A stretch of 64,000 bases of DNA from an uncultured Chloroflexia bacterium (GCA_963714425.1 CAVQOI010000005.1:19218-83217); one strand, 5' to 3'. Positions 18,827 to 61,660 are shown, numbered from the stretch's first letter. Made by a program: numbers and translations. Notes: generated by a model not told the origin, from the letters alone.

Positions 18827-19224
18827 TGGTGGAGATGGGGGGATTCGAACCCCCGTCCGAAAGATTCGTCCCGCGAATATCTACGAGCGTAGTCGGTTTA
18901 TGGGTGTCGCCGCCAGCGTCCAGACCGACAAAGGAGGCTGGCAGCCAGCCGCTCGGACCCGAAAGCCCTTCTTTCGCACGGTTAGCGGCGTCTGGTGCGG
19001 CACTCTATCTTTGTTTCGCCCGATCCTACCACCGGATAGAGGGCGGGGCAGGCGGACGCGGTCCTACGTTGAGGACCGGCTACTCTTGCGATCGCTTATG
19101 CAGCGAGCGGAAGGGCAGCGTAGTTTGTGCTTTTGGCACTTATGGTTTGCGCTGATTTAACGATCTCGGCGCCTATCGGCTCGCAATCCGGGGCCAGCTT
19201 CTCCCGTCGAAGCCTGTCATCCCC
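18827..19224 (-). ncRNA. ssrA: tmRNA (transfer-messenger RNA)
   Basis: The minus strand reads 5' GGGGATGACAGGCTTCGACGGG ... GGACGGGGGTTCGAATCCCCCCATCTCCACCA 3', a tRNA-Ala-like acceptor and T-arm. The internal tag frame is ...GCC AAA AGC ACA AAC TAC GCT GCC CTT CCG CTC GCT GCA TAA (..AKSTNYAALPLAA*). The exact resume codon is not certain. Confidence 0.9.
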
Positions 19225-20519: not shown

Positions 20520-21287
20520 TTATTCGCTTAGATCTCCAGGCGTAAGGTAATTTATACTGCGATGAGGGCGGACTTGGGCTTCGACATCGTCTTTTAAGAC
20601 ATTCCCTGATACGTGCATGAGCGTGTCCCCAAAATCAATATCTTTTCCCATGCTTGCGAGACAGGGGTAGTGATGGTGCAATAGACCAGCTTTTTCGCTA
20701 GCCTCATCCACCGAAACCCCAACCAGCTTTTCTGCAACGTAACGAGCACAGCCACAAACAGCATCTCTTTGTACTTGCACGGAGCTGATAGTACGTGATT
20801 TCTCGTCTACTTCAATTTCTAGATGAGGTTGACCGAAGTAGGACGCGAATTCGGAAATGAGTGGGCTCAGGTAGGTGATTCGCTGGCGGCGGGTGACGCC
20901 ATAATCGGTTTCGGTGAGCGAACATAGCGGTTTAGGCGTCGCGCAGACGACCCCAATATTATCCAGCCATCCTCGCAGCTGGCGTGCAAGGCCGCGGGGC
21001 AGCCAGGCTTCATTATCTACAGAGGCAATTACAGCTTGTGCGCCCGTCATTTTGGCGATATCTGGGATAAGCTCAGCAACTCCACGGTGCTCAGCAAACG
21101 AGAGAATGAGATCACTCTCAGGCAGTTCGGAAGGGAGGTAATCTTCGGGATAATCGAGAATTAGTGGAAATGTGGCAGGCGCCCGCCAGGTAACGATCTC
21201 CCAGGAGGGGGGTGCATGTTTCCGGATATTGTCAGCGTGACGGACCCCGTAATCACCTGAGATAATTGCCAAGATGCGCATAGTCAA
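20520..21287 (-). CDS. DUF166 / COG1810-like uncharacterised protein
   Basis: 255 aa. From memory, MRILAIISGDYGVRHADNIRKH...PKPLCSL...CGCARYVAEKL...HHHYPCLASM resembles the mainly archaeal DUF166 family. Conserved Cys/His suggest metal binding. Confidence 0.45.
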   Translation of the reverse strand: MTMRILAIISGDYGVRHADNIRKHAPPSWEIVTWRAPATFPLILDYPEDYLPSELPESDLILSFAEHRGVAELIPDIAKMTGAQAVIASVDNEAWLPRGLARQLRGWLDNIGVVCATPKPLCSLTETDYGVTRRQRITYLSPLISEFASYFGQPHLEIEVDEKSRTISSVQVQRDAVCGCARYVAEKLVGVSVDEASEKAGLLHHHYPCLASMGKDIDFGDTLMHVSGNVLKDDVEAQVRPHRSINYLTPGDLSE

Positions 21288-25037: not shown

Positions 25038-26969
25038 CTACGCACCTTGCTCCTGACCGGGCTCGAGCTGGTGGTCCAGTATTTCTGCGATGTCCAATAC
25101 CTGTACCTGCTCGCCTAAACCCTTGGAGCGAATGGCATCGTCAAACATGAGCAGGCAGTAAGGGCAAGCTGTAGCTATTGCATCCGCCTTAGCACTCAGC
25201 ACTTCATCTAAGCGACGATGATTGATGCGTGTCTCTGCATCCGTTTCCAACCACATCTGACCGCCCCCTCCGCCGCAACAAAAACTATTCTCCCCTTTAC
25301 GTGCGAGCTCTACTCGTTTGACCTTTGATTGATCGAGCAGCTGTCGGGGTTGGGCGTAAATATTGTTATAGCGCCCCAGGTAGCAGGAATCGTGGACAGC
25401 AAACCGGGCTTGTGCTCCATTGCCGTTAGCTGGGGACATCATGCCTGGCAGTTGCAATTCAGCTAAGAATTCGGTATAGTGTTGGACTTTGAAATTCCCG
25501 CCCATTTGCGGATATTCGTTCTTCAGCGTATTGAAGCAGTGTGGGCACTGGGTGACGATCCTATTGAACTTGATTTTTGAGAATACCTCAATGTTCTGTT
25601 CGGCGAAGGTCTGGAATAGATATTCATGTCCCATCCGCCTGGCAGTCTCTCCACAGCACATTTCATCAAAGCCAAGAATACCGAAATCAACACCAGCTTT
25701 GACCAGCAGGCGAGCAAACGATCGGGCAACTTTCTTATTGCGATCGTCGAAAGCGAAAGCGCATCCCAAGAAAAGCAGCACGTCCGTCTCGTCGCCTGGA
25801 GCTAATTCGCGTAATTCGAGCCCTTCCGCCCATGCTAGCCTGTCTTCTGGGGGCATCCCCCAGGGGTTGCCCTGACGCTCCATGTTTCGCAATGTGTCCG
25901 CGACCGATTTAGGTAGTTTTCCGGTTGTCAATGCCTGATAGCGGCGCAAATCGATGATGGCATCTACCGGGTTGACGAAGGCGGGGCACTTCACCAGACA
26001 GGCTCCACAGGTTGTGCACGACCAGGCGAAATCCTCCGGGAGAACCTCTCCTAAGATCTCACTGTCTGGGTGCCCATTAGGGCTGACCAAAGTATCGAGC
26101 ATGCCAGATCTGAGCGATTGGATCAGGTTTTTTGGGGTATATGCCATACCGCTGATGGTGGCGGGACAGGCCTCTTCACAGCGCCCACAGCGCACACAAG
26201 CATCGAAGGATAATAGCTGGATACTCTGGAATTCTGTGATCTTGCCCACACCCAGCTTCTCGGCATCATCAATATTTTCAATCTTGCTTAATGCACCCAA
26301 TTTTCTTCTCGGGTGAACGAGGATCTGTAGCGGTGTGAAAATTAGATGGCGCAGCTTGGTAAATGGGATGCTGGCAACCAAAGCCAAACCCAAGCCTATA
26401 TGGGAGTATAGAAAAACCGGGTGCAGACTGGCTGCCATTTCTGGTGTCATACCAAGGGTGCGTCCGAAGTGCGCAAGTGCGTTGCCAACCGGCGACCAGC
26501 TGGCCCAGGCAGGTGAGGTGGAAAGGAATCTGGCAGCTTCTGTGGCGAAGCCCACAAGCGGAAGAAGACCGAGTAGAGTGAGCGCGTAAGCATCATCCCA
26601 GCTATTTTCTAGCGTTTTCGGGCGTGCAATAAAGCGCCTGATAGCTGCCATGAAAACACCCAAAATTATGGCTACGCCAGCAATATCCATAATCAGCTCA
26701 TACCCAAGGTAGGCAGCGCCGCGTGGAAAAGGCAGCTCAACAAATGGGATAAAGAGCTGCATTTGCATCAAGTTGATGGCGGTTCCTAACACTTGAACGG
26801 TCACGCCCCAGAAGATAAAAGCATGCATGATGCCAGGGTAAATCTTCTTATAGAGGCGTACTTGACCGAGGGTATTGACGAAGAATTCTGATAAATACGG
26901 CTTGAGGGTTTCTAGCGATTTTCTTATATCCCATCTTCTAGGAGTCGTTGATAGCGTCTTTGTGGTCAT
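25038..26969 (-). CDS. Membrane-bound HdrD/DsrK-like Fe-S reductase (NarI-like TM domain, 2x[4Fe-4S], two CCG domains)
   Basis: N-terminal 5-6 TM region with conserved His (IMHAFIFWG, YSHIGLG, LRHLIF). Ferredoxin motifs CVRCGRCEEACP and CTTCGACLVKCP. CCG-type Cys motifs (LGCAFAFD...MCCG...CPHC and FCCGGGGG...CPYC). Confidence 0.75.
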   Translation of the reverse strand: MTTKTLSTTPRRWDIRKSLETLKPYLSEFFVNTLGQVRLYKKIYPGIMHAFIFWGVTVQVLGTAINLMQMQLFIPFVELPFPRGAAYLGYELIMDIAGVAIILGVFMAAIRRFIARPKTLENSWDDAYALTLLGLLPLVGFATEAARFLSTSPAWASWSPVGNALAHFGRTLGMTPEMAASLHPVFLYSHIGLGLALVASIPFTKLRHLIFTPLQILVHPRRKLGALSKIENIDDAEKLGVGKITEFQSIQLLSFDACVRCGRCEEACPATISGMAYTPKNLIQSLRSGMLDTLVSPNGHPDSEILGEVLPEDFAWSCTTCGACLVKCPAFVNPVDAIIDLRRYQALTTGKLPKSVADTLRNMERQGNPWGMPPEDRLAWAEGLELRELAPGDETDVLLFLGCAFAFDDRNKKVARSFARLLVKAGVDFGILGFDEMCCGETARRMGHEYLFQTFAEQNIEVFSKIKFNRIVTQCPHCFNTLKNEYPQMGGNFKVQHYTEFLAELQLPGMMSPANGNGAQARFAVHDSCYLGRYNNIYAQPRQLLDQSKVKRVELARKGENSFCCGGGGGQMWLETDAETRINHRRLDEVLSAKADAIATACPYCLLMFDDAIRSKGLGEQVQVLDIAEILDHQLEPGQEQGA

Positions 26970-27400
26970 GCCTCGCCTCCTACGTAGACCTCATCACCGG
27001 CCACCGATACAGCTAGTGGAGCTAGCGCCTTTGGAGGTGGACCTGAGATTACATGACCGTCCAAAGGATCAAAATATCCTTCATGGCATGGACATACGAT
27101 TTGAGATATTTCTGGATCCCATTTGCAGATGCAGGCGAAGTGCGTACATACTGCTGAATATGCTCGCAGACCCTCAGGGGTATTGACCACCAGGGCTGGA
27201 TAACGCCCAAAACGGACTGTCTTCGCCATCCCGACAGGAAGCTCTGAGACTTTGCTGACCAGCACCGGCTCTGATGGCATCTCCTCCAGATTGGGGGGGT
27301 AGAAGAAGGCAACCACGGGTCCAAATACCGCCGCCAGACCGGTGGCAGAGAGAGCTTTTTTGGCTAAGGAAAGAAATTCGCGGCGTGATATCTGGCTCAT
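26966..27400 (-). CDS. Rieske [2Fe-2S] protein with twin-arginine signal
   Basis: MSQISRREFLSL is a Tat motif. CTHFAC...CPCHEG is the Rieske CxH / CxxH pair. I prefer the start at 27400, which has a GGAGAGGTGA RBS. ATGA overlap with the downstream HdrD-like gene. Confidence 0.85.
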   Translation of the reverse strand: MSQISRREFLSLAKKALSATGLAAVFGPVVAFFYPPNLEEMPSEPVLVSKVSELPVGMAKTVRFGRYPALVVNTPEGLRAYSAVCTHFACICKWDPEISQIVCPCHEGYFDPLDGHVISGPPPKALAPLAVSVAGDEVYVGGEA

Positions 27401-27402
27401 GT

Positions 27403-27804
27403 CTAGCTCACCTCTCCCCAAATCGTTAATGCGATCAGCAGCACCATCCCAACAATGACAGCAATAAGCCGTGTCGTGTAGATTTTTTTGGATGTGTCCG
27501 GCTTACGGTCAAAGAAAGGCCAAAGCGCAATGATTCCGACCCCAATTACGGGTAATACTGCACCAATAGTTTTTGGGATGTATTTCAACAGCTGGTATAG
27601 AGCCAGGAAATACCATTCCGGTTTAACATGAGCGGGAGTGTCCATTGGGTCGGCGGGGTCGCCCAAACCGATCGGGACGAAGAAACCCAGGATTGCTATG
27701 GCAACTATCACGAAGGTAACGCCCAACACAACCCGGAATTCGGTGCGTACGTGATCAGGGTAGAAAGGAATAGATTCTTCTTCGGTCGCGTGGAGTTCAG
27801 CCAT
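27403..27804 (-). CDS. Cytochrome b C-terminal domain (b6f subunit IV-like)
   Basis: 133 aa with three TM segments and the PEWYFLALYQLLKYIP motif. Confidence 0.8.
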   Translation of the reverse strand: MAELHATEEESIPFYPDHVRTEFRVVLGVTFVIVAIAILGFFVPIGLGDPADPMDTPAHVKPEWYFLALYQLLKYIPKTIGAVLPVIGVGIIALWPFFDRKPDTSKKIYTTRLIAVIVGMVLLIALTIWGEVS

Positions 27805-27828
27805 TAATATCTCCTAGAATTTTAGCGC

Positions 27829-28833
27829 TCACAGCGGTTTAGCAACACCTTGACGGCGCACCATCAAGAAATGGGATCCCATAAAGACCAGGGTCATGAT
27901 CGGGATGACGATGACATGCAGACTGTAGAACCGGCTCAGAGTCAAGGCACCCACATCCCAACCCACACGCAGGAAAACAAGCGATAAGTTGCCAATCACT
28001 GGGATTGCTCCGGCGATCTCTGTACCCACCGTGGTTGCCCAAAATGCACGCTGGTCCCAGGGGAGCAGGTAGCCAGTGAAACCGAAGCCCAGGGTCAATA
28101 TAAGCAGGATCACACCACTCACCCAATTAAGCTCCCGAGGAGCCTTGAACGCCCCCATGACAAAGACTCGCAGCATGTGGGCAGTGCACATGACAATCAT
28201 GCCATTAGCTGCCCAATGGTGGATAGCCCGGATGGCAGCCCCAAAGCGCACCTGTGTCTCAATAAAGAGGATGCTTGCGTAAGCAGCCTCAGGTGTGGGT
28301 TTGTAGTAAAAAGCCAGCATGATACCGGTGATAGCCTGGACGACAAAAAGGAATGCGGTAATGCCTCCCAGACAGTACCACCAGCGTAAGGCAAATGTCG
28401 GGACTGGCTTGTTCAGAACTTTGGAAAGCGGATCACGGATGGAGTAGCGTTCATCGACCCACTCGAAGGCACGGAGCTGGAGCGGTTTCCAGGGAGCGCG
28501 GGTGACCCAGGCGCTGGCGCTGCGATAAACTCCCATTACGAACACCAGCCCGACCATTCCGAAGAACGTCCACCGCACCAGTGGTGTCCAGAGACCTTTA
28601 TTCTCTCCGCTGATATGGCAGTGCAAGCACGGGTCTCTTTCCGGCGGCGGGATTGTGGCAGCGGCACTCGGGTCATGAGATACATTCTGAACGATTGACC
28701 AGGCTGGTATGGAGGGGTCTGGCGCGGTCGCCATCGCCTTGCCATGGGCGTTCATGAAGATTGCCCCAGCAAGCCCAAGGACAAGCAAAACAGTGAAGGA
28801 TAGTAGGAGGATGCGCGGGGAACGATTTGTCAT
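27829..28833 (-). CDS. Cytochrome b (b6-like N-terminal domain) with an N-terminal extension carrying a c-type haem motif
   Basis: Cyt b core (WWYCLGGITAFLFVVQAITGIMLAFYY, AIHHWAANGM, GYLLPWDQRAFWATTV, SLHVIVIP). The N-terminal TM helix is followed by CLHCH (CxxCH). Confidence 0.8.
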   Translation of the reverse strand: MTNRSPRILLLSFTVLLVLGLAGAIFMNAHGKAMATAPDPSIPAWSIVQNVSHDPSAAATIPPPERDPCLHCHISGENKGLWTPLVRWTFFGMVGLVFVMGVYRSASAWVTRAPWKPLQLRAFEWVDERYSIRDPLSKVLNKPVPTFALRWWYCLGGITAFLFVVQAITGIMLAFYYKPTPEAAYASILFIETQVRFGAAIRAIHHWAANGMIVMCTAHMLRVFVMGAFKAPRELNWVSGVILLILTLGFGFTGYLLPWDQRAFWATTVGTEIAGAIPVIGNLSLVFLRVGWDVGALTLSRFYSLHVIVIPIMTLVFMGSHFLMVRRQGVAKPL

Positions 28834-29173: not shown

Positions 29174-29821
29174 TCAGATCTCGATGATTTTCTTCTGGAT
29201 GGCGTATTTGATCAGGTCGCCACGGTCATGAAGGTCCAATTTGCTCATCAGGTTAGTGCGGTGAGATTGGACCGTCTTGACCGAGATCGTGAGGATGCCG
29301 GCTATCTGTTTGGTGGTGTAGCCTTCCGCGATCAATTGTAAGACTTCATGCTCCCTCGGAGTGAGCCCATCATCAACCTGAGGTTGCAGTTCGCCCCATC
29401 GCAGATAGTCCTCAATAACCATGCGCGTGATGGCGGGCGATAAGACTGCCTCTCCACGATTGACTGTACGGATGGCGCCGATCAGATCGCGCGCAGCAGC
29501 ATCTTTGAGGATATAACCCATAGCTCCACAGGCTAACACCTGGCGGATATATTCTTCGTTTTCGTGCATGGTGAGGATGAGCACCCTGGTTTGGGGATTA
29601 TCGCGCTTGATCTGGCGGGTAGCTTGAAGTCCATTCAACACTGGCATAGCGATATCCATGAGAACAACATCTGGCTCAAGTTGCGAGACCATCTGCACAG
29701 CTATACGACCATCGTCTGCCTCACCCACAACAACCATATCACTCTCACTCTCAAGGAGTGAGCGGATACCATCCCGCAGGATTGTGTGGTCGTCGGCGAT
29801 CAAAATGCGAATCTTTTGCAC
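29174..29821 (-). CDS. NarL/FixJ-family response regulator (REC + LuxR HTH)
   Basis: ILIADDH...DVVLMDIAMP...K in the receiver domain. The C-terminus has LTPREHEVLQLIAEGYTTKQIAGILTISVKTVQSHRTNLMSKL. Confidence 0.85.
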   Translation of the reverse strand: MQKIRILIADDHTILRDGIRSLLESESDMVVVGEADDGRIAVQMVSQLEPDVVLMDIAMPVLNGLQATRQIKRDNPQTRVLILTMHENEEYIRQVLACGAMGYILKDAAARDLIGAIRTVNRGEAVLSPAITRMVIEDYLRWGELQPQVDDGLTPREHEVLQLIAEGYTTKQIAGILTISVKTVQSHRTNLMSKLDLHDRGDLIKYAIQKKIIEI

Positions 29822-29822
29822 G

Positions 29823-30878
29823 TTAGGCTACCTCGCCATTAATCACGGGCATAGTGACCTCGAGGGAAGTTCCCCGTCCGGGTTTTGAGTCCAATCTCAC
29901 ATTGCCACCAACCAGCTCAGCGCGTTCGATAATTCCAACAAGCCCCCACTGCTGCAAACGAACGGCACACGACGAGATTTGTTCCGTATTGAAGCCATGT
30001 CCATCGTCTTCAATGTGCAACCGAATGATATCATCACCTCTTTCCAGAGAGATTTTAGCACTACCAGCATTCGAATGTCTGACGATGTTGGTGACTGCTT
30101 CCTGTGCAATACGAAAGAGTGTGGTTTTGATCTCCTGGGAGAGCTGAGCAAATTCATCGGTGGCATTAAAATCAACACGAATGCCTGCTTCTTCTAATGA
30201 ATTGCGCGCATACCAACGGATTGCAGGTACGAGACCGAGGTCATCGAGAATGGTCGGGCGCAGATCGTGTATGGTCTTGCGCAAATCGCTCAAAGTCACT
30301 TGCGCTATATTGCGTGTATTGGTGAGCTTCTCTCGAATTCCCGAATCCTCTGGGGTCAGCTGATTTTCGAGGTGCTCGAGGTTGATAATCAGCATGCTCA
30401 ACGCTTGTCCTGTGTCGTCATGAAGGCTGCGGGCGATGCGTTTGCGTTCTTCCTCATGCGCATTAATGGCACGTTCTGATAGGTGTCGCAGCTGCCGGTT
30501 TTGGGCCTCAAGCTCAATGACCAATGTGTTGAGACCCGCGGCGATCTGGCTTATGTCTGGCGCTGCAGCCTGTAAGAATTCTGGTGGGATGTAGGTCTCG
30601 CCAGTATGGATTTTTTCAACCGCATTGGACAAGTCGATTAGGGGACGAAGTGCGAGTTTTATCAACCAATAGTTGAGAGTGATCGAAAGCAGCGTACCAA
30701 TGGTGGCAAAGAGGGCGATCAAGCTGATATCTGCAGCCTGGTCGGTCAGCAAGCGAGTCAGCAATGTCCCGCCAATTGCGCCTATAACGATGATTATCGA
30801 ATTACCGATGGCAATTTGCTTGAAGAGGGGTTGGCGGATAAATGGGCGCCGCAGGAAATCGAACAGGGATGAGCGCAT
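29823..30878 (-). CDS. Sensor histidine kinase (2 TM, HAMP, HisKA_3, HATPase_c)
   Basis: H-box ERKRIARSLHDDTGQAL (NarX/DegS type). ATPase N/G boxes (EAVTNIVRHSNA, DDGHGF, GLVGIIERAELVGG). Confidence 0.8.
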   Translation of the reverse strand: MRSSLFDFLRRPFIRQPLFKQIAIGNSIIIVIGAIGGTLLTRLLTDQAADISLIALFATIGTLLSITLNYWLIKLALRPLIDLSNAVEKIHTGETYIPPEFLQAAAPDISQIAAGLNTLVIELEAQNRQLRHLSERAINAHEEERKRIARSLHDDTGQALSMLIINLEHLENQLTPEDSGIREKLTNTRNIAQVTLSDLRKTIHDLRPTILDDLGLVPAIRWYARNSLEEAGIRVDFNATDEFAQLSQEIKTTLFRIAQEAVTNIVRHSNAGSAKISLERGDDIIRLHIEDDGHGFNTEQISSCAVRLQQWGLVGIIERAELVGGNVRLDSKPGRGTSLEVTMPVINGEVA

Positions 30879-31112: not shown

Positions 31113-31967
31113 CTATAGGAAACTTTCTAATAAAGAACCTACCTCAGCCATAGAAAATACAGGACCATCTACACAAACCAGTTTCTCACCCAGGTTGCAG
31201 CGACCGCATTTTCCGATGCCACAATGCATGCGCGCTTCAAGAGTTACATAGTTCTGGTCAGGTGTGAAGCCGAGCTTCTCAACGAGGATCTTGTTCACAA
31301 AGTGAATCATGATGGGCGGGCCGCAAGTAATCGTGATTGCGTTCTCTGGTACGGGTGCGACTCGATCCAGCAAATCCGTAATCAGGCCGACGTGATGGTC
31401 CCAATGGGAATCGGGGACATCTACGGTGAGATGCAATTGGGTGTCGGGAGCAGAGCGCCAGCTTTGGTACTCGTCAGTAAAAACCAGCAAGGAGGGGTGT
31501 CTTGCTGCCCAAAGGATCGTCAGGTGGCCGTAGTCCTGGCGGTTATTCAAGACATGTTGAATAACCGGGCGCAAGGGTGCCCCGCCTATCCCACCACCGA
31601 GGACGACCAGATCTTTGCCTTTAAAATCCTCCATGGGGAACCAATTCCCAAGAGGACCACGCACACCTATGATATCGCCAACACCCAGCTCGTGCATCTC
31701 TGTTGTAACCGATCCCAGGCGTTGAACGGCAAACTCCAGGGGACCACCATTTGGAGCAGAGGCAAAACCAAAAGCTGCCTCACCCACGCCAAATGCAGAT
31801 ACGAACGCGAACTGCCCAGGTTTATAGGAGCGAAAATGCTCGCTCCCTCCGTTTAGCATTTGCACTCCAAAGAGCTTGATCTCGGACCCAAGGTCTCTGG
31901 TGAAAACGAGTTTACCCAGGTAGGGCTTCATCGGATTATCGTGGTTATTTTCCGTATCTCGCGTCAT
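31113..31967 (-). CDS. FAD/NAD(P)-binding oxidoreductase with C-terminal [2Fe-2S] (FlxA / HydG / AsrB-like)
   Basis: Ferredoxin-reductase-type fold (PGQFAFVS, GPLG, VVLGGGIGGAPL). C-terminal CGIGKCGRCNLGEKLVCVDGPVF. Confidence 0.7.
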   Translation of the reverse strand: MTRDTENNHDNPMKPYLGKLVFTRDLGSEIKLFGVQMLNGGSEHFRSYKPGQFAFVSAFGVGEAAFGFASAPNGGPLEFAVQRLGSVTTEMHELGVGDIIGVRGPLGNWFPMEDFKGKDLVVLGGGIGGAPLRPVIQHVLNNRQDYGHLTILWAARHPSLLVFTDEYQSWRSAPDTQLHLTVDVPDSHWDHHVGLITDLLDRVAPVPENAITITCGPPIMIHFVNKILVEKLGFTPDQNYVTLEARMHCGIGKCGRCNLGEKLVCVDGPVFSMAEVGSLLESFL

Positions 31968-32971
31968 GAGGCCACCTCCGCCATGTCAGCAAGCACTTCT
32001 CCAATATCGATATTGACAGGGCACATCTCAATACAGCGTCCACAGCCGGTACATGCCATTGGACCGTACTGCTCTGCATAGTAGTGAAACTTACACATAA
32101 AGCGATTACGCAGACGTTGGCTTGTGGAGGCGCGTGGGTTATGACCCCCAGCAATCCGACGATAGGAGGGACTGGTGCAAGTATCCCAACAGCGAATGCG
32201 CTCGTATTCGGATTTACCGTCACCACCCGTTAGCGCTTCATCGCGCACGATGAAACACCTGCAGGTAGGACATACATAACCACATATGCGGCAGCTCAGA
32301 CATCGCTCTGCCAAACGCTCCCAGTAAGCATCCGTGAAACGCGCAGACCAGCTTATCGTCTGGGGAGATGGGATCTTGGATAGATCCCGCCTATCGATGA
32401 TGGGTGGTACAACCACCTCGCCAGTAACTGGTTTGAGGCGATCTGATAGGAGCTGGTTGCCTTTTTCAGTCACAATTTGGGCGAGGTAACCTCCATCAGT
32501 TTCGGTAAGCATGATGTCCATGTCCTGAGGATCATCTGGAAACCCTCCAACACTGGTACAAAAGCAGGTTTCGCCCATCTCGCGGCATGCGAGGCCAATC
32601 AGGGTTGTATTTTCCCGACGCTTGGCATAGTACGGATCAGATGGCTCCATCAGGAACATCTCATCCAGGATCTTCATCCCCCTGGCGTCACATGGGCGGA
32701 CACCAAAGATGACGACCTCACCTTCAGGCAAGGTCTCGGTAAGCTGAAGCTCTTGCCCGTTTATGTGGATATGTAGCAGCGCCTCCGTTGCAGGGAAGAA
32801 CACTTCTTTTATGGATAGTGCAGGGCGCGAAAACTTCCAGGCGATTTCCGACGTGGTTCCCACCTGGCGGTAACGAAGGACACCTTCATCCCGGGTGGGA
32901 GCAACAAGATTCGATTCTTGTGCTAAGTTATCGAGTATTGCGGAGAGATCTGCTTGGGATAGGAACTTCAT
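31964..32971 (-). CDS. 4Fe-4S dicluster protein (FlxB/C, HydB, AsrA-like)
   Basis: CLSCRICGYVCPTCRCF and CTGCGRCIEMCPVNI. 4-nt overlaps with both neighbours. Confidence 0.65.
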   Translation of the reverse strand: MKFLSQADLSAILDNLAQESNLVAPTRDEGVLRYRQVGTTSEIAWKFSRPALSIKEVFFPATEALLHIHINGQELQLTETLPEGEVVIFGVRPCDARGMKILDEMFLMEPSDPYYAKRRENTTLIGLACREMGETCFCTSVGGFPDDPQDMDIMLTETDGGYLAQIVTEKGNQLLSDRLKPVTGEVVVPPIIDRRDLSKIPSPQTISWSARFTDAYWERLAERCLSCRICGYVCPTCRCFIVRDEALTGGDGKSEYERIRCWDTCTSPSYRRIAGGHNPRASTSQRLRNRFMCKFHYYAEQYGPMACTGCGRCIEMCPVNIDIGEVLADMAEVAS

Positions 32972-34329
32972 GGCAGCTGCTCCTCTCCGTTCAGGATTGT
33001 GACGAATGGTGATGGGACTGGCTCCAGACCGGCACGGTGCCCGAATACTGTCTGCATCTCCTGGATGAGTTTCCCGTTGAGCAAGCTAATCGGGATCTCC
33101 ATCGGACACACACGCTCGCACTCGTGGCAATCCACGCAACGACCAGCCAGATGATATGCTCTTCCCAGGTGGAAGGTGCGTTTCTCATTTGCATTGATGC
33201 CCATGCCTACCCAGAGAGAGTCATCTCGCTCGTACAAGCAGGTGGGGCAGGCACACATCGGACAGACCTGGCGACAAGCATAGCAGCGGATACATCGATC
33301 GAACTGCGACAGCCAATATTCCATACGCTCTGGAGCTGACTTAGCATCCAGCTCGGAAAGCCGCGGGGGAATCACAAGCTGAGGATGCACTTCTGGGGCA
33401 TCGCCGACCAGGGTGTCGTATACAATGGGTATACGCTGATCACATTCCTGGCATCGCTCCTGGAGACTGCAATTGTCGCTGTTCACTTCTCGCATCCCCT
33501 GGCAGGCCACTCCAATCACATGAACCTGACCCCGCTCAAACCGATTTTCAGCGAGCAACACGTTTATCGCCCGGCTGTCACACGGTTTTGCCACGATGGC
33601 GATGGGTTTTTTGGGTTCTGATCCTGCCTTTGTCCCCGGAGGGTAGAGGGTCGAGTGCAGGTAAGTCGTCAGGTTATGGGAGCAGTCCTGGTTCCAAACT
33701 AGGCGCTGGACCTCTGCCGGATTGCGGACAAACGCTGGGCGTGTGCGCCCATGCGTACCAGACTCATAGCCTATTACAACGCTCACTTCGCCTGTGGAAA
33801 GCAACTGGCGCGCTGTATCCTGGATCAACACGGCCACATGGGATTCATCAGGAGGCGCAACCAGTCTGGCTGTCGAAGTCTCTGTATTGAAATTAGTTCT
33901 TACTGGATCGTGGTCTCGCTGGCTTAATCTCCATTTCACTGGTCCAAGTGAACGCACCTTGTCTGTGAACTCGTTTACGATGCGACTGAAGCGCTCACCT
34001 TCAGAAGCGGAAACGTAATCGAGCCGCAGCCTTTCGGGCTCCAGCCCGGTAAAAGCCATGAGCGATTGGAGAATTGGCAGGCGCTTGGCTGTGCGATGAT
34101 TGCCAGTGTCATAATGGCATTCACCGACGTGGCAGGCGAGGACAAGCACACCATCTGCCCCTTGGTCAAAGGTACGCATGATTATCTCGGGAGCGACACG
34201 TCCAGAACAGGGGACGCGCACAGCACGCACATTTGCTGGAGATTTCAGCCGAGCGATACCAGCTGTATCAGCGCCTGTATAGCTACACCAGGTACATAGA
34301 AATGCAATGATCTTAGGTTCGTATGGCAT
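32968..34329 (-). CDS. MvhD/FlxD-domain protein fused to an Fe-S (2x[4Fe-4S]) module
   Basis: The N-terminus KIIAFLCTWCSYTGADTAG...VRVPCSGRVAPEIIMRTF..GADGVLVLACHVGECHY is an MvhD/FlpD domain. The C-terminus has CIRCYACRQVCPMCACPTC and CVDCHECERVCP. Confidence 0.7.
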   Translation of the reverse strand: MPYEPKIIAFLCTWCSYTGADTAGIARLKSPANVRAVRVPCSGRVAPEIIMRTFDQGADGVLVLACHVGECHYDTGNHRTAKRLPILQSLMAFTGLEPERLRLDYVSASEGERFSRIVNEFTDKVRSLGPVKWRLSQRDHDPVRTNFNTETSTARLVAPPDESHVAVLIQDTARQLLSTGEVSVVIGYESGTHGRTRPAFVRNPAEVQRLVWNQDCSHNLTTYLHSTLYPPGTKAGSEPKKPIAIVAKPCDSRAINVLLAENRFERGQVHVIGVACQGMREVNSDNCSLQERCQECDQRIPIVYDTLVGDAPEVHPQLVIPPRLSELDAKSAPERMEYWLSQFDRCIRCYACRQVCPMCACPTCLYERDDSLWVGMGINANEKRTFHLGRAYHLAGRCVDCHECERVCPMEIPISLLNGKLIQEMQTVFGHRAGLEPVPSPFVTILNGEEQLP

Positions 34330-34340
34330 TCCACGACCTC

Positions 34341-37300
34341 CTAAGTACTTACGATTCCCGGGACTATCGGCATGGAAGTGGCAGGCACATCCATATCCAG
34401 AGCTCCGAGCATCTCATTAATGATCTGGCGATCATCGTAGTGGATCAGGCTCATGGCTTTATTTGGACAAGCTGCAGCGCAAGTACCACAGCCTTTGCAC
34501 AGGAAGCCTTTCACTACAGCGACTCCATCCTGAAGCTCGACCGCCCCATAAGGGCAAGCGTAGGTGCATTGCCCGCAACCCGCACAGCGGACTTGATTGA
34601 CAACAGCAATGGATGGATCCAAAGCGATCGTACCCTGGTCTATCAGCGAGAGAGCAGCAGCGGCTGCGGCTCCTGCCTGGGCGACACTATCGGGGATATC
34701 CTTCGGGCTCTGGCAGGCGCCGGCCAGGTAGATCCCTTCGTTCGCCGTTTCAACGGGAGCGAGCTTGGGGTGGCGCTCGAGAAAGAAACCATCGCGGCTG
34801 CGGCTAAGACCAAAAGTGTTGGCGACGCGGGAGGAATCATCGCGCGGCTCGAAACCGGTAGCGAGGATAACCATATCCACTTCGACATGGTCTGGCTGGT
34901 TATAGAAACTCTCATCCCAGGAGACACGTAGCTTTCCATTCACACGCTCGACGCTCCGTACTCTCCCGTGGTAGAAGTTGACACCCTTCTTTCGTGTGCG
35001 GTTATAGAACTCCTCATAATCTTTGCCGAAGGTGCGCATATCTCGATAAACTTCGTGGACTTCGGCGTCCACATAGTCATGTACCAGCTGGGCAAATTTC
35101 AAGGAATACATGCAACATGCACGCGAGCAATACTCATTGGTTTCCGTGTCGCGGCTACCAATACAATGCACAATGGCGACACTTTTCGGAGGCTTGCCAT
35201 CGGTAAGCAGCACTTTTCCACTGGTTGGACCGCTGGCGTTGATCAGTCGCTCAAATTCCATCGCAGAGACAATGTTGTCAAGCTTGCCATAGCCAAGTTC
35301 GGGAATGCGGGCAGGATCGAAATCCTTAAAGCCAGTCGCCAGAATGATCGTACCGACCTTAATGTCGATGGTCTCATCCTGCATATTGTGATCGATTGCG
35401 CCGCGCTCGCACGCTGCCAGGCACTCCAGGCACTCTGAACAGATGCCACAGCGCAAACATCGCTCAGCCTCGCTCAGCGCCTCTTCCTCGCTCATGGTCA
35501 GGTCGACCTCGCGGAAATTGTGAACGCGTTCTTGCACGGGGATGCTTCGTATGGGGACACGCCCAGCCAAGGAGGCCTCCCCGTTGTCAAACTTTTGCTC
35601 GATCTCTTCCTGGGTCAACTGGACTGTAGGCAGCTTGCGTGGTTCCTGAAGGCCGTTTTCGCCGCGCAGATAACGGTCAATACTGCGTGCGACGCGGTGA
35701 CCTTCGCCGATGGCATCGACAACAAAGAAAGTAACGCCGCGATGGACGTCGCCAGCGACAAATACACCTCGTTGTGTGGTCATCATATCCGCATTGCTCT
35801 GGATGCCCACGGGGTAGCGTGTATTGATGCTGCCATCGGGTGGCAGGAAGGAGAAATCCGGTCCCTGACCAATTGCCCATATGACCAGGTCGGCGGGAAG
35901 AATATGCTCGGTGCCAGGGATTTCATCCATATCCGGACGCCCCTGCTTGAAGCCTCGGAAGTTGACCTCGACACTGCGCACACCAAGAATCTTATCTTCT
36001 TTCACCACAATTTCTTTGAAGGTCCTGGAGGGGCATAAGATCACGCCTTCCTCTTCAGCAACACCGACCTCCCAGTCGAAACCAGGCATCTCGCCGCGCG
36101 GTTCCAAACAAGCCATACGTACCTCATCCGCGCCTAGACGCAGGACAGTTCGGGCAGTGTCTAGGGCGACATTTCCGCCACCCAGGACCACGACTTTCTT
36201 ACCGCTTAAGTCGATCTTCTCACCGAGTGTAACCTGGCGAAGCAGTTTCAAGCTGAGCCAGTTGTCCGGATGGTTCGAGTTACGGATAGGCAGCTTTTTG
36301 GCGGAATGAGCGCCAGTCGCAACAAGAACGGAGTGATAGCCGTTCTCGAGTAGGGAGGGGATGTCATCTACCCAGGCGTTCAGGCGAAGATCGACGCCCT
36401 CCTCAATTACCTGCTTGATCTCCCAATCGAGCATATCTGTTGGCAGCCGGTGAGGGGGGATACCGACGCGCATCATCCCGCCTGCAACGGGGAGTGCATC
36501 GAAGACGGTAACCTGGTGTCCTAATCGCACCAAGTCAAGAGCGGCAGTAAGCCCTGCTGGACCTGCCCCGATAATGGCGACCTTTTTCCCAGATTGTGGG
36601 TGGTTGTGCTGGAACGGGGTGCCAACCAAACTTTTATCACGCATCTGGGGTAATTCATGCCTGTGCTCGTACGCCCAGTCTGAGACGAAGCGCTTTAAGC
36701 CCATGATGTTCACGGATTCATCATACTTGCCTCGGCTGCACATATCCTCGCAGTGGTGATTGCAGACCCGCCCGCAGACAGATGGGAAAGGATGCTCCCT
36801 GCGAATCGCCCAATAGGCGTCTGCATAGCGTTTTTGACCAATGAGAGCGATATATCCCTGCGCGCGCTGGTCGGTAGGGCAGGCACTCCTACAAGGAGCA
36901 ACGCCTAGTTTTTGGATGGCGTAAGCCCCCGGAACTGCCTGGGCGGAGAATCGGTAAGATGCTTTGCGTGTGCTGAGGCCCATATCGAACGGGTTGGAGA
37001 TGTCAACAGGGCAAACTTCTGCGCATTTCCCGCATCCAGTGCATTGGGATTCATCGATATAACGTGATTTGCGGTGCACGCGCACATCGAAATTCCCAAC
37101 ATAACCAGAAACCGATTGGACCTCGCTGTAGCTCAGTAAGCTGATGTTTTCGTGGCGTCCAACGGACACCATTTTTGGTGTGAGTATTCAAGCCGCGCAG
37201 TCAAGCGTGGGGAAGGTCTTATATAGCTGAGCCATATGCCCACCGATGCTTGGCTCACGCTCTACAAGGTATACGTGCTTCCCAGCGTCTGCGAGCCTGA

Positions 37301-37781
37301 GGGCAGCCTCGATCCCAGCAATGCCTCCACCAACCACTAGAGTAGATGGGAGCATGTCAACATTGCGCTGCTCCAGCGGCTCGTGATAGCGTACTCGCCG
37401 GACAGCAGCTTCGACCAAACTCATGGCTTTATTGGTCGCCATATCCCGGTCGTCGATCACCCAGGAGCAATGCTCACGGATATTTGCCATCTGGAAGAAG
37501 AAAGGATTGAGTCCGCCTTCCATGCAGGCTTTTCTAAAGGTCGGCTCATGCATCAACGGGGTGCAAGAAGCCACCACAACCCGGTTCAAACCGTACTCAC
37601 GAATATCCTCTTTGATCAGATCCTGGCCCGGATCGGAGCACATATAGGTGTAATCTTTAGCTAGAATGACACCATCCAGAGTCCGGGCGTGGTCAGCGAC
37701 CGACTTCACGTCCACCGTGGCGGCAATATTGGTGCCGCAATGACAGACGTACACGCCGGTTCTGATTTTGGAGAGGTTCAT
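34341..37781 (-). CDS. hdrA: HdrA-like flavoprotein with in-frame UGA (predicted Sec198) and an inserted GltD/NfnB-like NAD(P)H module; read-through product 1146 aa
   Basis: Track ORFs 37188..37781 and 34341..37172 are in the same frame, separated only by TGA (37188-37190): TLDCAA-TGA-ILTPKMVSVGRHENI. The N-terminus has VVGGGIAGIEAAL (FAD). An insert at about 35460-36930 has CRSACP...CGRVCNHHCEDMC plus IIGAGPAGLTAA and VVLGGGNVALD, which is GltD-like. Confidence 0.7.
37153..37171 (-). promoter_or_regulatory. Candidate bacterial SECIS hairpin for the long hdrA
   Basis: The minus strand reads U GGUGUCC GUU GGACGCC A, an 8-bp stem with a 3-nt G-containing loop, starting 16 nt after the UGA. Confidence 0.5.
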
Positions 37782-39820
37782 GCCGGCACCTCCTCTAAAG
37801 GCATTGTGCGCAATGAGTTGAGCAACGCGCCTTCTATTTCAGCCATAACCTGCTCATAAGTAAACCCATGCTGGAGAGCAGCGCCAGCCGGACAAGCGCC
37901 CGCACATGCGCCGCATCCCTTGCAAAGAACTTCATTGATGAGAGCCACCTGCCTCCCTTCAAAGTCAACCATCTCGATGGCACCGTATGGGCAAAGCCCC
38001 TCGCAGGTGCGGCAGCCACCGCATTTTTCAGGGATTACGTAAGTAGTAAATGGCTCCAATGTGACATGCCCAGCATCCAGCATGGATAAGACACCCGCAG
38101 CAGCGGCACCACCCTGGGCAACGCTATCGGGGATATCCTTAGGTCCCTGGCAGGTCCCCGCAAGGAATACTCCATCGGTGGCAGTTTCCACGGGGGCTAG
38201 CTTGGGATGCTTCTCTAAGAAGTACCCGTCGGGGCTTAGACTAATGCCGAAAGTCTTGGCTACCTCAAGCTGGTCGCTATGCGGTTCGAGCCCAGTGCTA
38301 AGCACCACCATATCCACCAGGACATCATCAGGCTGCCCGGTAAAAATATCTATGGTTGAGACTTTCAGGTGCCCATTCTGCTGCGAGACATGAATTTTCT
38401 CTTCGAAGCGATGGAAATGAACACCATTTTGGGCAGCGCGAGTGTAGAAACCTTCATAATCCTTACCGAAGGTACGCATATCCCGGTAAAACTGGTAGAC
38501 TTCCGCATCCACGTAATGACGGATAAGCTCTGCCAGTTTGAGTGAGTACATACAGCAAACCCGCGAGCAGTATTCATGATGTTGCAGATCGCGGCTGCCG
38601 ACACAATGCAGGATTGCGATCCGCTCAGGCTTGCGCCCGTCTTTGAGCACCACTTGACCATTTGTGGGTCCACCGGTATTGATCATGCGTTCGAATTCCA
38701 TGCCGGAGACTACATTGTCGAGCTCTTTATAACCATATTGGGGAGCTTTGTGGGGGTCGAAATCTTGAAATCCAGTTGCCAGGACAATGCCACCGACTTC
38801 GACATCTATTAATTCATCCTTTTGCTCAAAGTCGATCGCCTGGCGTTGGCAGAACTTCTCGCAGGCACGACATTTGCCTCGTAGGAAATATGCACAGTTC
38901 TCAGTATCGATTATCGGTACGCGCGGCACAGCTTGGGCAAAGGGGAAGTAGATCGCCGGGCGATTGCCTAATCCCATATCAAATTCGGAGGGGATCTTTT
39001 TCCATGGGCATTTTTCAACGCATGCGCCGCAGCCAGTGCAATTTTCTTCGTTTACATAGCGCGCTTTTTTACGGATCTTCACGTTGAAATTTCCCACATA
39101 TCCCGATACCGATTCAACCTCACTGTTGCTCAGCAGAGTGATGTTTTCGTGGCGTCCCACGGACACCATCTTCGGAGTGAGAATTCAAGCCGCGCAGTCT
39201 AAGGTTGGAAATGTTTTGTACAACTGCGCCATGTGCCCGCCGATACTGGGCTGGCGCTCAACTAGATAGACATGCTTACCTGCGTCCGCCATGCGAAGGG
39301 CAGCTTCAATACCGGCGATCCCGCCACCAACGACTAACGCTGCCTGCTTGACGGTAACCTGCCGGCTGGTGAGCTCTTGGTTTAAGGCTACCCGGCGCAC
39401 GGCTGCAGACACGAGGGCTTTTGCTTTCTGGGTTGCCAGGACCATATCATCGGAAACCCAGGAGCAATGCTCGCGTATGTTTGTCATCTGGAAGAGAAAT
39501 GGGTTGAGCCCTCCCTCAGCGCATGCCCGCCGAAAGGTGGTCTCGTGCATCAGGGGTGAGCATGAGGCAACCACAACTCGATCTAAGCCCTCATTTTGTA
39601 TATCATCCTTGATGAGAGCCTGACCTGGATCAGAACACATGTAGGCGTAGTGGCGCGAGACTGCAACACCGTCGAGCGTGGATGCAAAATCAGCGACTGC
39701 AGCAACATCCACCATGCCTGCGATGTTTGTACCGCAGTGGCAGACATAAACGCCGATCTTTTCCCCGCAACCAGCGCGCAGAGAGGGTGGTCCGGTTTGG
39801 GAGCTCTGCTTTGGCTTCAT
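37778..39820 (-). CDS. hdrA: HdrA-like flavoprotein with in-frame UGA (predicted Sec212); read-through product 680 aa
   Basis: Track ORFs 39185..39820 and 37778..39169 share one frame, separated only by TGA (39185-39187): TLDCAA-TGA-ILTPKMVSVGRHENI. It has VVGGGIAGIEAAL, four ferredoxin-type Cys motifs, and an AAGGAGG RBS upstream of the ATG at 39820. Confidence 0.7.
39150..39168 (-). promoter_or_regulatory. Candidate bacterial SECIS hairpin for the short hdrA
   Basis: The minus strand reads U GGUGUCC GUG GGACGCC A. Stem and spacing (16 nt after the UGA) are identical to the paralog; only the loop base differs. Confidence 0.5.
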
Positions 39821-60276: not shown

Positions 60277-60352
60277 TGGGGTGCCTGAGGAGATTTGAAC
60301 TCCCAACCACCTGATCCACAGTCAGGTGCTCTGCCATTGAGCTACAGGCACC
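60277..60352 (-). tRNA. tRNA-His (GTG anticodon) with genomically encoded G-1 and CCA
   Basis: Manual cloverleaf: G(-1) GTGCCTG TA GCTC AATGGCA GAGC A CCTGA CTGTGGA TCAGG TGGTT GGGAG TTCAAAT CTCCT CAGGCAC C CCA. Confidence 0.9.
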
Positions 60353-60370: not shown

Positions 60371-61660
60371 TCATGGAGAGTGGGGCTTTTCAAGCATCTC
60401 TCGCAGGACATTGGGCGCCTCTGTCCTGGGAACAGCACGCTGCTCCCCAGAGTCCAAACTCTTGATCGATACCTCTCCGTTTTTCTTCTCGTCAGGTCCG
60501 AGCACGATTGCAAGGCGGATTCCTACGCGATCAGCGAATTTGAATTGCTTACCAAGCTTACTCGCCTCAGGGTAGCAATTGACCTTCAAGCCCGCCCGGC
60601 GGAGTTCCGCGGCAAGGGTGAAGGAATCTAGAAGAAACGTGTCGTCAAATACGGTGACCAATACTGGAGCAGGGGGTTTCAATAGATCGGCGGGAATACG
60701 TTGGTACTGCTCTAAGAGCAGCGAGATAACTACGTCCCCCATAGCGAAGCCGACACTGGGCAATTGATCGCCGCCGACATCCGCCAGAAGGTTGTCATAG
60801 CGCCCGCCGCCTAGGATTGATCGGCGCAGTTCTCCCTGCATGTCTACAGCTTCAAAGACGATGCCGGTGTAATAATCCAGCCCCCGCACGATATTGGCGT
60901 CGAAGCGGACGTACTCCTGGAAGCCCATGGATTTTATAGCGGCGAAAAAACGGATGAGCTCGTTAGATTTGCGCCACAACTCTGCGTCTGAGAGCATATC
61001 TTTTATGCTGCTTAGCTGGCGATCCGTGAGGCCAATGTCTTTGCCGTAAGCTTCCCATTCCAGCGGAGACATCTTGCCGCGCCGGTCGATCCAACGCAGG
61101 ACTTCAGGCCGAATTTCAGGAGCTACGCCTTGCGACGACAACTGGGCATCAACAAGGCGACGATCGTTAACCAGCAGGTTGACCTCGTCGGGACGGAGAC
61201 CGACGTCTGCGATAAAGGCGCAGGCGATCGCGACCAGCTCGGCATCAGCCTCGGGTGACTCAACCCCAAACAGGTCGATATTCCATTGAAAAAATTCCCT
61301 AGAGCGGCCCTTCTGGGGGCGCTCATACCGCCAGAAAGGACCAAAAGACCACCAGCGCACTGGGTAAACCAGTTGTTTCTGGCGCTGGGCGACCATGCGC
61401 GCTAATGAAGGCGTCAATTCCGGACGGAGTGTAATTAGGTCGCCACTACGGTCTGGAAAGACGAAGGATTGCTCCTTTACCAGCTCTTCCCCGGATTTCG
61501 CTGCATAGAGCTCAATCAACTCAAGAAAAGGGGCTTCATACTCCTGGTAACCATAAGCTTCGGACACTCTACGCGCAGTGGCATACAACCATGTACGGAG
61601 CGCCATCTCCTCCGGATAAAAATCGCGCGTGCCTTTGATCGATTGAATAATAGTCTTCAT
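60371..61660 (-). CDS. hisS: Histidine--tRNA ligase
   Basis: GTRDFYPEEM, LRPELT, YFGPFWRYERPQKGRSREF-type motif 2, and GGGRYD motif 3. Confidence 0.9.
   Translation of the reverse strand: MKTIIQSIKGTRDFYPEEMALRTWLYATARRVSEAYGYQEYEAPFLELIELYAAKSGEELVKEQSFVFPDRSGDLITLRPELTPSLARMVAQRQKQLVYPVRWWSFGPFWRYERPQKGRSREFFQWNIDLFGVESPEADAELVAIACAFIADVGLRPDEVNLLVNDRRLVDAQLSSQGVAPEIRPEVLRWIDRRGKMSPLEWEAYGKDIGLTDRQLSSIKDMLSDAELWRKSNELIRFFAAIKSMGFQEYVRFDANIVRGLDYYTGIVFEAVDMQGELRRSILGGGRYDNLLADVGGDQLPSVGFAMGDVVISLLLEQYQRIPADLLKPPAPVLVTVFDDTFLLDSFTLAAELRRAGLKVNCYPEASKLGKQFKFADRVGIRLAIVLGPDEKKNGEVSIKSLDSGEQRAVPRTEAPNVLREMLEKPHSP

Follow-up and report, generated by a model that had tools for sequence, protein, structure and literature searches.

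An adjacent hdrA and hdrL pair in an uncultured Chloroflexia bacterium, very probably two mis-called selenoprotein genes

Two genes interrupted at the same column

The stretch of DNA analysed here comes from an uncultured Chloroflexia bacterium (GCA_963714425.1 CAVQOI010000005.1:19218-83217) and is referred to as the window; it is 64,000 nt long and all coordinates are counted from its first letter. On its minus strand lie two adjacent genes of the HdrA family, hdrA and hdrL, each interrupted once by an in-frame TGA. The longer of the two, hdrL (34341..37781, minus strand; 1146 codons), is recognised from its translation and from NCBIfam, Pfam and PDB matches. Public gene calls store it as two separate proteins of 197 and 943 amino acids on the same 162,533-nt contig, the fate that a first-pass annotation of this DNA had expected from standard gene callers. 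How do the two pieces belong together? The open reading frames (ORFs) at 37188..37781 (197 residues) and 34341..37172 (943 residues) share one frame, and the junction between them reads, on the minus strand, ACG CTT GAC TGC GCG GCT TGA ATA CTC ACA CCA AAA ATG GTG, letter for letter as the first-pass annotation had it. Translating 37781..34341 gives 1146 codons in which codon 198 is the sole internal stop, with no frameshift, so the single frame proposed there holds. This TGA (37188..37190, minus strand) is a putative selenocysteine (Sec) codon for residue 198, placed in the Cys/Sec197 column of HdrA by the translation, by alignment to PDB chains and orthologs, and by a count of the surrounding motif.

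The first-pass annotation described one Sec gene and made no mention of the adjacent upstream hdrA, which has the same TGA. The hdrA gene (37778..39820, minus strand) is of canonical length, with 680 codons and its putative Sec at codon 212, and was delimited by translation and by its match to the HdrA2 model. Its in-frame TGA, the second putative Sec codon of the pair (39185..39187, minus strand), was found from its peptide context and a six-frame scan, and joins 39820..39188 with 39169..37778 in one frame. In the family scan the 211-residue ORF upstream (39185..39820) matches HdrA model positions 1-191 and the 463-residue ORF downstream (37778..39169) matches positions 199-641; once joined, residues 21-666 of the 680-residue HdrA match HdrA2 model positions 1-641 of 777 in one stretch. 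The start codon of hdrA is uncertain because the family match begins only at residue 21. Beyond the TGA at the Sec position the gene has no frameshift and no further internal stop. The peptide context of the TGA is identical in hdrA and hdrL, FPTLDCAA[U]ILTPKMVSVGRH. Are there more such genes? A scan of the window in six frames for long ORF pairs joined by one stop gave only two junctions with homologous flanks, those of hdrL and hdrA, and no further selenoprotein gene; the other same-frame pairs were adjacent genes or non-coding frames. The TGA that terminates hdrA overlaps the ATG of hdrL as ATGA (37778-37781, minus strand), and one operon would accordingly hold an ordinary terminating TGA next to two that are decoded as Sec.

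The column in which the TGA falls is well defined by solved structures. In a search of PDB sequences, the first 302 residues of the hdrL product, given a Cys in place of residue 198, match HdrA chains with E=1e-113. In the alignment the TGA falls on the second Cys (Cys197) of NDCSICILAPK in 5ODC and LDCSMCILAPK in 8RVU, and likewise in 8RVV. Both genes contain the D-C-x-x-[C/U]-I-L-x-P-K motif, with C-x-x-C/U at positions 194-197, in the form DCAA[TGA]ILTPK, and two full-length orthologs of 1132-1133 amino acids (P0002 and P0003, 70-71% identity) have DCAACILTPK, with Cys at the TGA column. The first-pass annotation had named a D-C-x-x-C-I-L-x-P-K motif, placed the UGA on its second Cys and proposed an alignment of residue 198 with homologs; the motif is indeed that of 5ODC and 8RVU, and the column is Cys in the PDB chains and in both orthologs. 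Its view of HdrA as an established selenoprotein family also agrees with the literature: the family has a CxxU motif (PMC9312934), found in archaea and bacteria, and many bacterial members (PMC1794560). The HdrA of Methanococcus maripaludis has Sec197 in this same column, where a Cys-Sec selenylsulfide may act as a relay between the N-terminal [4Fe-4S] cluster and FAD (PMC13518236), and in methanogen HdrA the N-terminal [4Fe-4S] cluster of one protomer has Cys197 of its partner as a ligand (PMC9012536).

A scan of genomes yielded 77 related loci, most of them from metagenome-assembled genomes (MAGs) of Anaerolineae, Anaerolineales or Chloroflexota at 57-80% identity; the few others, at 45-48% identity, come from MAGs of Bipolaricaulota, Fraserbacteria, Deferrimicrobium and Thermotogae. 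The motif was sought in every frame of the 77 loci and the window and occurs 132 times. Its Cys/Sec codon is TGA in 116 of the 132 (114 in fetched loci and the two of the window), TGT in 9 and TGC in 7, and never TAA or TAG. Where a locus has two or three copies the choice is uniform: 49 such loci are all TGA (48 fetched and the window), three are all Cys (L018, L023 and L048, from Anaerolineales MAGs) and none is mixed. An all-or-none pattern is expected if decoding depends on machinery that a genome either has or lacks. The protein search points the same way, since fragments of about 897-961 amino acids covering 78-82% of the query make up 118 of 120 among the matches listed, and the five of these that were fetched all start at the downstream MVSVGRH or VSVGRH. 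Codon counts and fragment-length protein matches together suggest that the Sec form dominates the clade.

Several of these relatives have features of their own. Seven loci (L004, L005, L011, L020, L059, L061 and L071) have a third Sec-type hdrA or hdrL copy within about 6 kb of the pair. In the three all-Cys loci both hdrA and hdrL use TGC, and the hairpin that follows the TGA elsewhere has decayed at synonymous sites; the pattern suggests that Sec decoding was lost in the whole lineage and that all copies were then converted from Sec to Cys. The more distant loci of Bipolaricaulota, Fraserbacteria, Deferrimicrobium and Thermotogae (L050-L058, L072, L073 and L076) encode near-full-length HdrL homologs at 45-48% identity, all of them Cys-type (TGT or TGC) and without the hairpin. 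Judging from these homologs, the HdrL fusion is probably much more widespread than its 2009 description implied.

The downstream hairpin and the reading of the UGA codons

What would tell a ribosome to read these UGA codons as Sec? Immediately 3' of each lies a candidate bacterial Sec insertion sequence (SECIS). In hdrL it is UGGUGUCC-GUU-GGACGCCA, an 8-bp stem with a 3-nt loop (37153..37171, minus strand), proposed from the minimum-free-energy fold and from conservation; in hdrA it is UGGUGUCC-GUG-GGACGCCA (39150..39168, minus strand), proposed from the fold and from comparison of homologs. The common form UGGUGUCC-GUN-GGACGCCA starts 16 nt 3' of the UGA and has its loop 24 nt after it. At the hdrL site this hairpin is the minimum-free-energy fold (-14.7 kcal/mol, z=-2.1), and nearly all Sec-type homologs fold the same one. 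Codon entropy, computed over 108 unique Sec-type sequences, is at or near its floor in the stem: 0 bits at the third position of GTG (Val), of TCC (Ser) and of GGA (Gly), and 0.23 at that of CGC (Arg), against 1.39 bits for the loop codon GTN and 1.0-1.7 bits at the flanking four-fold sites. Counted pair by pair, 99.5% of cells are paired, compared with 24-60% when the partners are slid. One stem pair has A-U instead of G-C in 3 of 97 sequences, an A.C intermediate occurring once, and another has C-G instead of U.G in six.

The Cys-type genes serve as a natural control and are the decisive contrast for the hairpin. The Cys-type copies of L018, L023 and L048 encode similar peptides, with an identical MVSVGRH in two of six, and spell them with other codons (e.g. 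ATGGTCTCCGTCGGCCGCCAC); none of the six forms the 8-bp hairpin, which is also absent from the Cys-type genes of the other phyla. The case for the hairpin rests mainly on this contrast and on conservation at synonymous sites, and no support from covariation is claimed. The element shares with the E. coli fdhF-type SECIS its place as a stem-loop directly 3' of the UGA within the coding region and the conserved loop G-U; unlike that type it has a 3-nt GUN loop and a perfect 8-bp stem without a bulged U, and it is best called putative. In the bSECISearch consensus the loop lies 16-37 nt from the UGA, with a G among its first two bases. The present hairpin, with its loop at 24 nt and G-U as the first loop bases, presumably fits that consensus. 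Two marks of a bacterial selenoprotein gene are present, a UGA aligned with Cys and flanked on both sides by coding conservation, and a (putative) stem-loop immediately after it.

Could the pieces instead be genuine separate proteins? In a split gene, translation would stop at the TGA and re-initiate at an ATG seven codons on (37172 in hdrL, 39169 in hdrA), giving two proteins, an N-terminal one with the Fe-S domain and a C-terminal flavoprotein, which would associate through non-covalent contacts. The ATG does stand 18 nt after the TGA in both genes, gene callers yield precisely these two products, and hdrA_N/hdrA_C arrangements are known in Deltaproteobacteria (PMC1794560). The five codons between TGA and ATG speak against it. 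They encode I-L-T-P-K, and among the Sec-type sequences the only amino acid changes are seven from T to S or A at the third codon, while their third positions vary freely (0.8-1.7 bits) and all four Pro codons are used. Amino acids that are kept while synonymous sites drift are the mark of purifying selection on a protein, so this segment is translated in frame, which excludes a simple stop followed by re-initiation. A split would also drop Cys/Sec197 and the ILxPK segment from both products. The downstream Met is conserved in uninterrupted Cys-type proteins too, as KMV or KMT, the ATG has no purine run of the Shine-Dalgarno kind ahead of it (ACUCACACCAAAA), and the break is always TGA and never another stop. 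A split gene is therefore very unlikely.

Coding conservation on both sides of the TGA requires that the codon be read, but the residue inserted might be one other than Sec: the UGA might be decoded by near-cognate suppression with Trp or Cys, or after a lineage-wide reassignment. Yet among 53 ORFs of the window TGA is the most frequent ordinary stop (23, next to 21 TAA and 9 TAG) and hdrA itself ends in it, which excludes a genome-wide reassignment of UGA. The only two in-frame TGAs in the 64 kb both fall at a known Sec position, and the SECIS-like hairpin is tied specifically to the TGA. Sec-specific elongation factors (SelB) have moreover been reported in Anaerolineales (PMC4959059), and both A. 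thermophila and single-cell genomes of Anaerolineales are reported to encode such factors along with formate dehydrogenases of the Sec type (PMC4959059, PMC5736913). Decoding as anything other than Sec is thus extremely improbable.

Two further alternatives have next to no probability. A sequencing or assembly error for a true TGC or TGT has in its favour that TGA is one base from a Cys codon and that the source is probably a metagenome-assembled contig (the relatives' records are all MAGs), but it would have to strike two separate sites in the window and 114 further copies in assemblies that, judging by record titles, come from many projects and platforms, and to do so only where a Sec-specific hairpin, absent from true Cys-type genes, accompanies the codon. 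Pseudogenes, with a nonsense mutation in hdrL and independently another in hdrA, are what an in-frame stop in a conserved gene suggests by default, and no Sec machinery was seen in the window, but the codon distribution effectively refutes them: the same codon occupies the same column in 116 gene copies, it is the Cys column alone that is affected and by TGA alone, the downstream hairpin is conserved, and the flanks are intact over more than 1000 codons with no other stop or frameshift in either gene.

Several observations weigh against the reading of both codons as Sec and against a close equation with known HdrA enzymes. The single-sequence fold z-scores are modest (-2.1 and -1.9), and covariation is thin, with a double change at one pair only (3 of 97 sequences) in a stem that hardly varies. 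Rfam at gathering thresholds, run over the whole window, gave no SECIS family match to the hairpin. Genes for Sec insertion (selA, selB, selD and tRNA-Sec) were not found in the window, about half of whose ORFs were scanned, or in about 1 Mb of related loci. For tRNA-Sec, ARAGORN found none in the window and L001-L060, and Rfam, again at gathering thresholds over the whole window, matched only tmRNA and tRNA-His. A 643-residue and 343-residue pair at 26969-23976, picked as sel candidates by size, proved in the family scan not to be SelA, SelB or SelD; NCBIfam or Pfam scans of 30 further window ORFs revealed none of the three, and tblastn against the window and all loci with SelD and SelB of E. 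coli as queries, a weak test, gave no matches. The proteins themselves fall short of the NCBIfam cut-offs: with the HdrA equivalogs NF041778, NF041891 and NF040770, hdrA reaches 812.5 of 1100 bits, 597.7 of 1400 and 583.2 of 1300, and HdrL reaches 822.7 of 1100. The operon (39820-31113) has no hdrB or hdrC, the latter pair including the CCG-domain catalytic subunit. Given the missed equivalog cut-offs and the lack of an adjacent hdrBC, the two proteins are to be taken as HdrA-family homologs and not as demonstrated CoM-S-S-CoB reductases.

Both TGA codons are very probably read as Sec, and hdrA and hdrL would then be a mis-called selenoprotein pair; the single selenoprotein gene put forward in the first-pass annotation gains support and acquires a neighbour. 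A ribosome arriving at the UGA would meet the hairpin that starts 16 nt 3' of it, and this would act as a bacterial SECIS, recruiting SelB-GTP-Sec-tRNA(Sec) so that translation goes on. The predicted products are a 680-residue HdrA and a 1146-residue HdrL, each with a C-x-x-U motif.

Architecture, operon and known counterparts

Why is hdrL so long? The first-pass annotation called it a long hdrA; it does belong to the HdrA family, but it is not a plain HdrA, and its length comes from a fusion of the HdrL type, HdrA with a GltD part. Residues 7-304 match NCBIfam HdrA2 and residues 781-1129 match the HdrA model, the two halves covering HdrA2 model positions 1-303 and 300-652. Between them lies a GltD/NfnB-like insert, residues ~288-810 (35352..36920, minus strand; Pfam and NCBIfam), a Fer4_20 plus Pyr_redox_2 NAD(P)H/FAD module with PF14691 at residues 294-373 and PF07992 at 399-693 in Pfam; PRK12771 matches HdrL 288-810 with 465 bits, under its 516-bit cut-off. 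These domain matches make the hdrL product an HdrA of the HdrL type, into which a GltD/NfnB-like NAD(P)H module has been inserted. The order typical of the HdrA family (COG1148) is found here: an N-terminal Cys-rich [4Fe-4S] domain, a TrxR-like FAD domain, an inserted ferredoxin domain and a C-terminal 2x[4Fe-4S] ferredoxin domain.

Apart from hdrA and hdrL, the operon holds only an mvhD fusion and two Flx-like genes. The mvhD gene (32968..34329, minus strand) begins 11 nt after the hdrL stop, an order kept in relatives, and encodes a Cys-type fusion of an MvhD (FlpD) domain with an Fe-S protein, FlxD-FlxC-like in its make-up (Pfam FlpD 7-129, Fer4 343-412). It has no in-frame stop, with Cys present (CTWCSY), and its C-terminal part is 24% identical (E=2e-7) to the product of the HydB-like next gene. 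That gene (31964..32971, minus strand) encodes a HydB/AsrA-like Fe-S subunit resembling FlxB (Pfam Fer4_22; NCBIfam sulfhydrogenase beta and AsrA below cut-offs). The last one (31113..31967, minus strand) encodes, by its domain matches, a HydG/AsrB-like FAD/NAD(P)-binding subunit with a DHODB-type Fe-S domain, resembling FlxA and conserved in relatives at 65-79% identity. The domain content of these genes fits FlxABCD, and they have only generic sulfhydrogenase, AsrA and AsrB matches, all below cut-offs; by domain likeness the MvhD fusion, the HydB-like and the HydG-like protein resemble FlxD-C, FlxB and FlxA, respectively. The five-gene order is kept in most relatives with long enough contigs, Cys-type ones included. 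No recurrent TGA column appears in the mvhD and flx genes of relatives, only gene ends, frameshift noise and scattered other stops.

How does this arrangement compare with known systems? HdrL was first described in Desulfobacterium autotrophicum (Strittmatter et al. 2009), as a heterodisulfide reductase/glutamate synthase fusion; this organism has two HdrL and two HdrA with Sec, each gene followed by mvhD, and a tandem hdrL/hdrA locus, the Sec-containing HdrL members being HdrL1 and HdrL3 (PMC2702500). HdrL has also been reported in S. fumaroxidans (PMC5947623). With the HdrL of D. autotrophicum HRM2 and Syntrophobacter fumaroxidans the present gene shares its size, a big HdrA with a GltD-like NAD(P)H module, as well as Sec (putative here), the neighbouring mvhD and the tandem with hdrA; an HdrA core with an NAD(P)H domain like the glutamate synthase small subunit and an mvhD directly after the gene, two features of HdrL, are found here. 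The differences from the deltaproteobacterial HdrL are the host, a member of the Chloroflexota, the order hdrA, hdrL, mvhD fusion, Flx-like B and A, and neighbours that include neither dsr nor hdrBC. The likeness is one of architecture and of published descriptions, and the GltD fusion in Chloroflexota may have arisen independently.

The Sec column, CxxU, the domain order and the associated MvhD gene are shared with the Sec-HdrA of Methanococcales, Deltaproteobacteria and Firmicutes. Unlike methanogen Sec-HdrA, whose SECIS is archaeal and lies in the 3' untranslated region, the genes described here have their putative SECIS in frame just 3' of the UGA, as bacteria do, and unlike the methanogen genes they sit in an operon that also lacks a hydrogenase or formate dehydrogenase gene and score below the NCBIfam equivalog cut-offs. 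Desulfovibrio has a possible parallel for the rest of the operon, the NADH dehydrogenase/heterodisulfide reductase FlxABCD-HdrABC (Ramos et al. 2015, cited in PMC5947623). Here too an FlxA-like FAD/NAD(P) subunit, HydB-like Fe-S subunits of the FlxB/C kind and an FlxD-like MvhD stand beside hdrA; in contrast to that system a single protein combines the FlxD-like with the FlxC-like part, neither HdrB nor HdrC is present, and there are two HdrA-type subunits, one of which (HdrL) has its own NAD(P)H module.

The surroundings of the operon offer further observations. Directly downstream, at 29174-30878 (minus strand), lie a NarL/LuxR-type response regulator and a HisKA_3 histidine kinase, which could regulate the hdr-flx operon; in the related loci no such pair was seen beside it. 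A separate cluster at 25038-28833 (minus strand) encodes a cytochrome b6-like protein, a Rieske Fe-S protein and a 643-residue TfrB/HdrD-like CCG-domain Fe-S protein. The best NCBIfam match of the cytochrome is 'selenite/tellurite reduction operon cytochrome ExtP' (258 bits, cut-off 290), and the TfrB-like protein (25038-26969), the nearest CCG protein to the operon, has a weak 'diclust_near_Sec' match. This cluster may be a membrane quinol-linked partner of the Hdr-like system. The gene at 20520-21287 (minus strand), which is free of in-frame TGA codons, encodes a DUF166 protein (Pfam E=1e-48) with a weak NCBIfam match to 'DUF166 family (seleno)protein DfsP'. The window also holds a tmRNA gene (18827-19224, minus strand; tag peptide AKSTNYAALPLAA) and a tRNA-His(GTG) at 60277-60351 (minus strand), which adjoins hisS (60371-61660).

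Implications for the Anaerolineae

What could Sec contribute to such proteins? By homology it would occupy HdrA position 197, where, going by the solved methanogen complexes, it could either serve as a ligand to the partner protomer's N-terminal [4Fe-4S] cluster or belong to a Cys-Sec redox pair situated between that cluster and the bifurcating FAD. Judging from domain content and conserved gene order, HdrA, HdrL, the MvhD fusion and the two Flx-like subunits would form a soluble, flavin-based electron-bifurcating or confurcating complex that would link NAD(P)H and ferredoxin. A more specific proposal, possible though on balance unlikely, is that Sec-HdrA and Sec-HdrL form an obligate heterodimer in which each Sec197 completes, or is redox-coupled to, the N-terminal [4Fe-4S] cluster of the other subunit; the resulting enzyme, a bifurcating or confurcating NAD(P)H-ferredoxin one without HdrBC, would have two flavin entry points. 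Were this true, selenium at an inter-subunit position would be under unusually strong selection, as might be read from the 49 multi-copy loci that are entirely Sec and from Cys forms that occur only where all copies of a locus have switched together. A 2026 structural paper explicitly leaves the role of Sec197 in HdrA open, and with such a heterodimer the abundant environmental Anaerolineae would offer a bacterial system in which to probe it.

The understanding of selenoproteins as such does not change, HdrA and HdrL being Sec families already; a familiar type of selenoprotein has been mis-annotated, in a lineage for which it is evidently the norm, and this will not surprise a specialist. Comparing the Sec-type with the Cys-type orthologs does offer a clear natural contrast from which a compact bacterial SECIS could be defined. 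The value of the finding lies in annotation and in the physiology of the Anaerolineae. Both genes, and more than 100 orthologs in Anaerolineae MAGs, are stored as truncated fragments in public protein sets. Metabolic reconstructions of these widespread anaerobic Chloroflexota therefore lack the full-length HdrA and HdrL and underestimate how far the organisms depend on selenium. The operon itself points to a selenium-dependent, HdrBC-less and Flx-like HdrA/HdrL module that would carry out electron bifurcation in the Anaerolineae.

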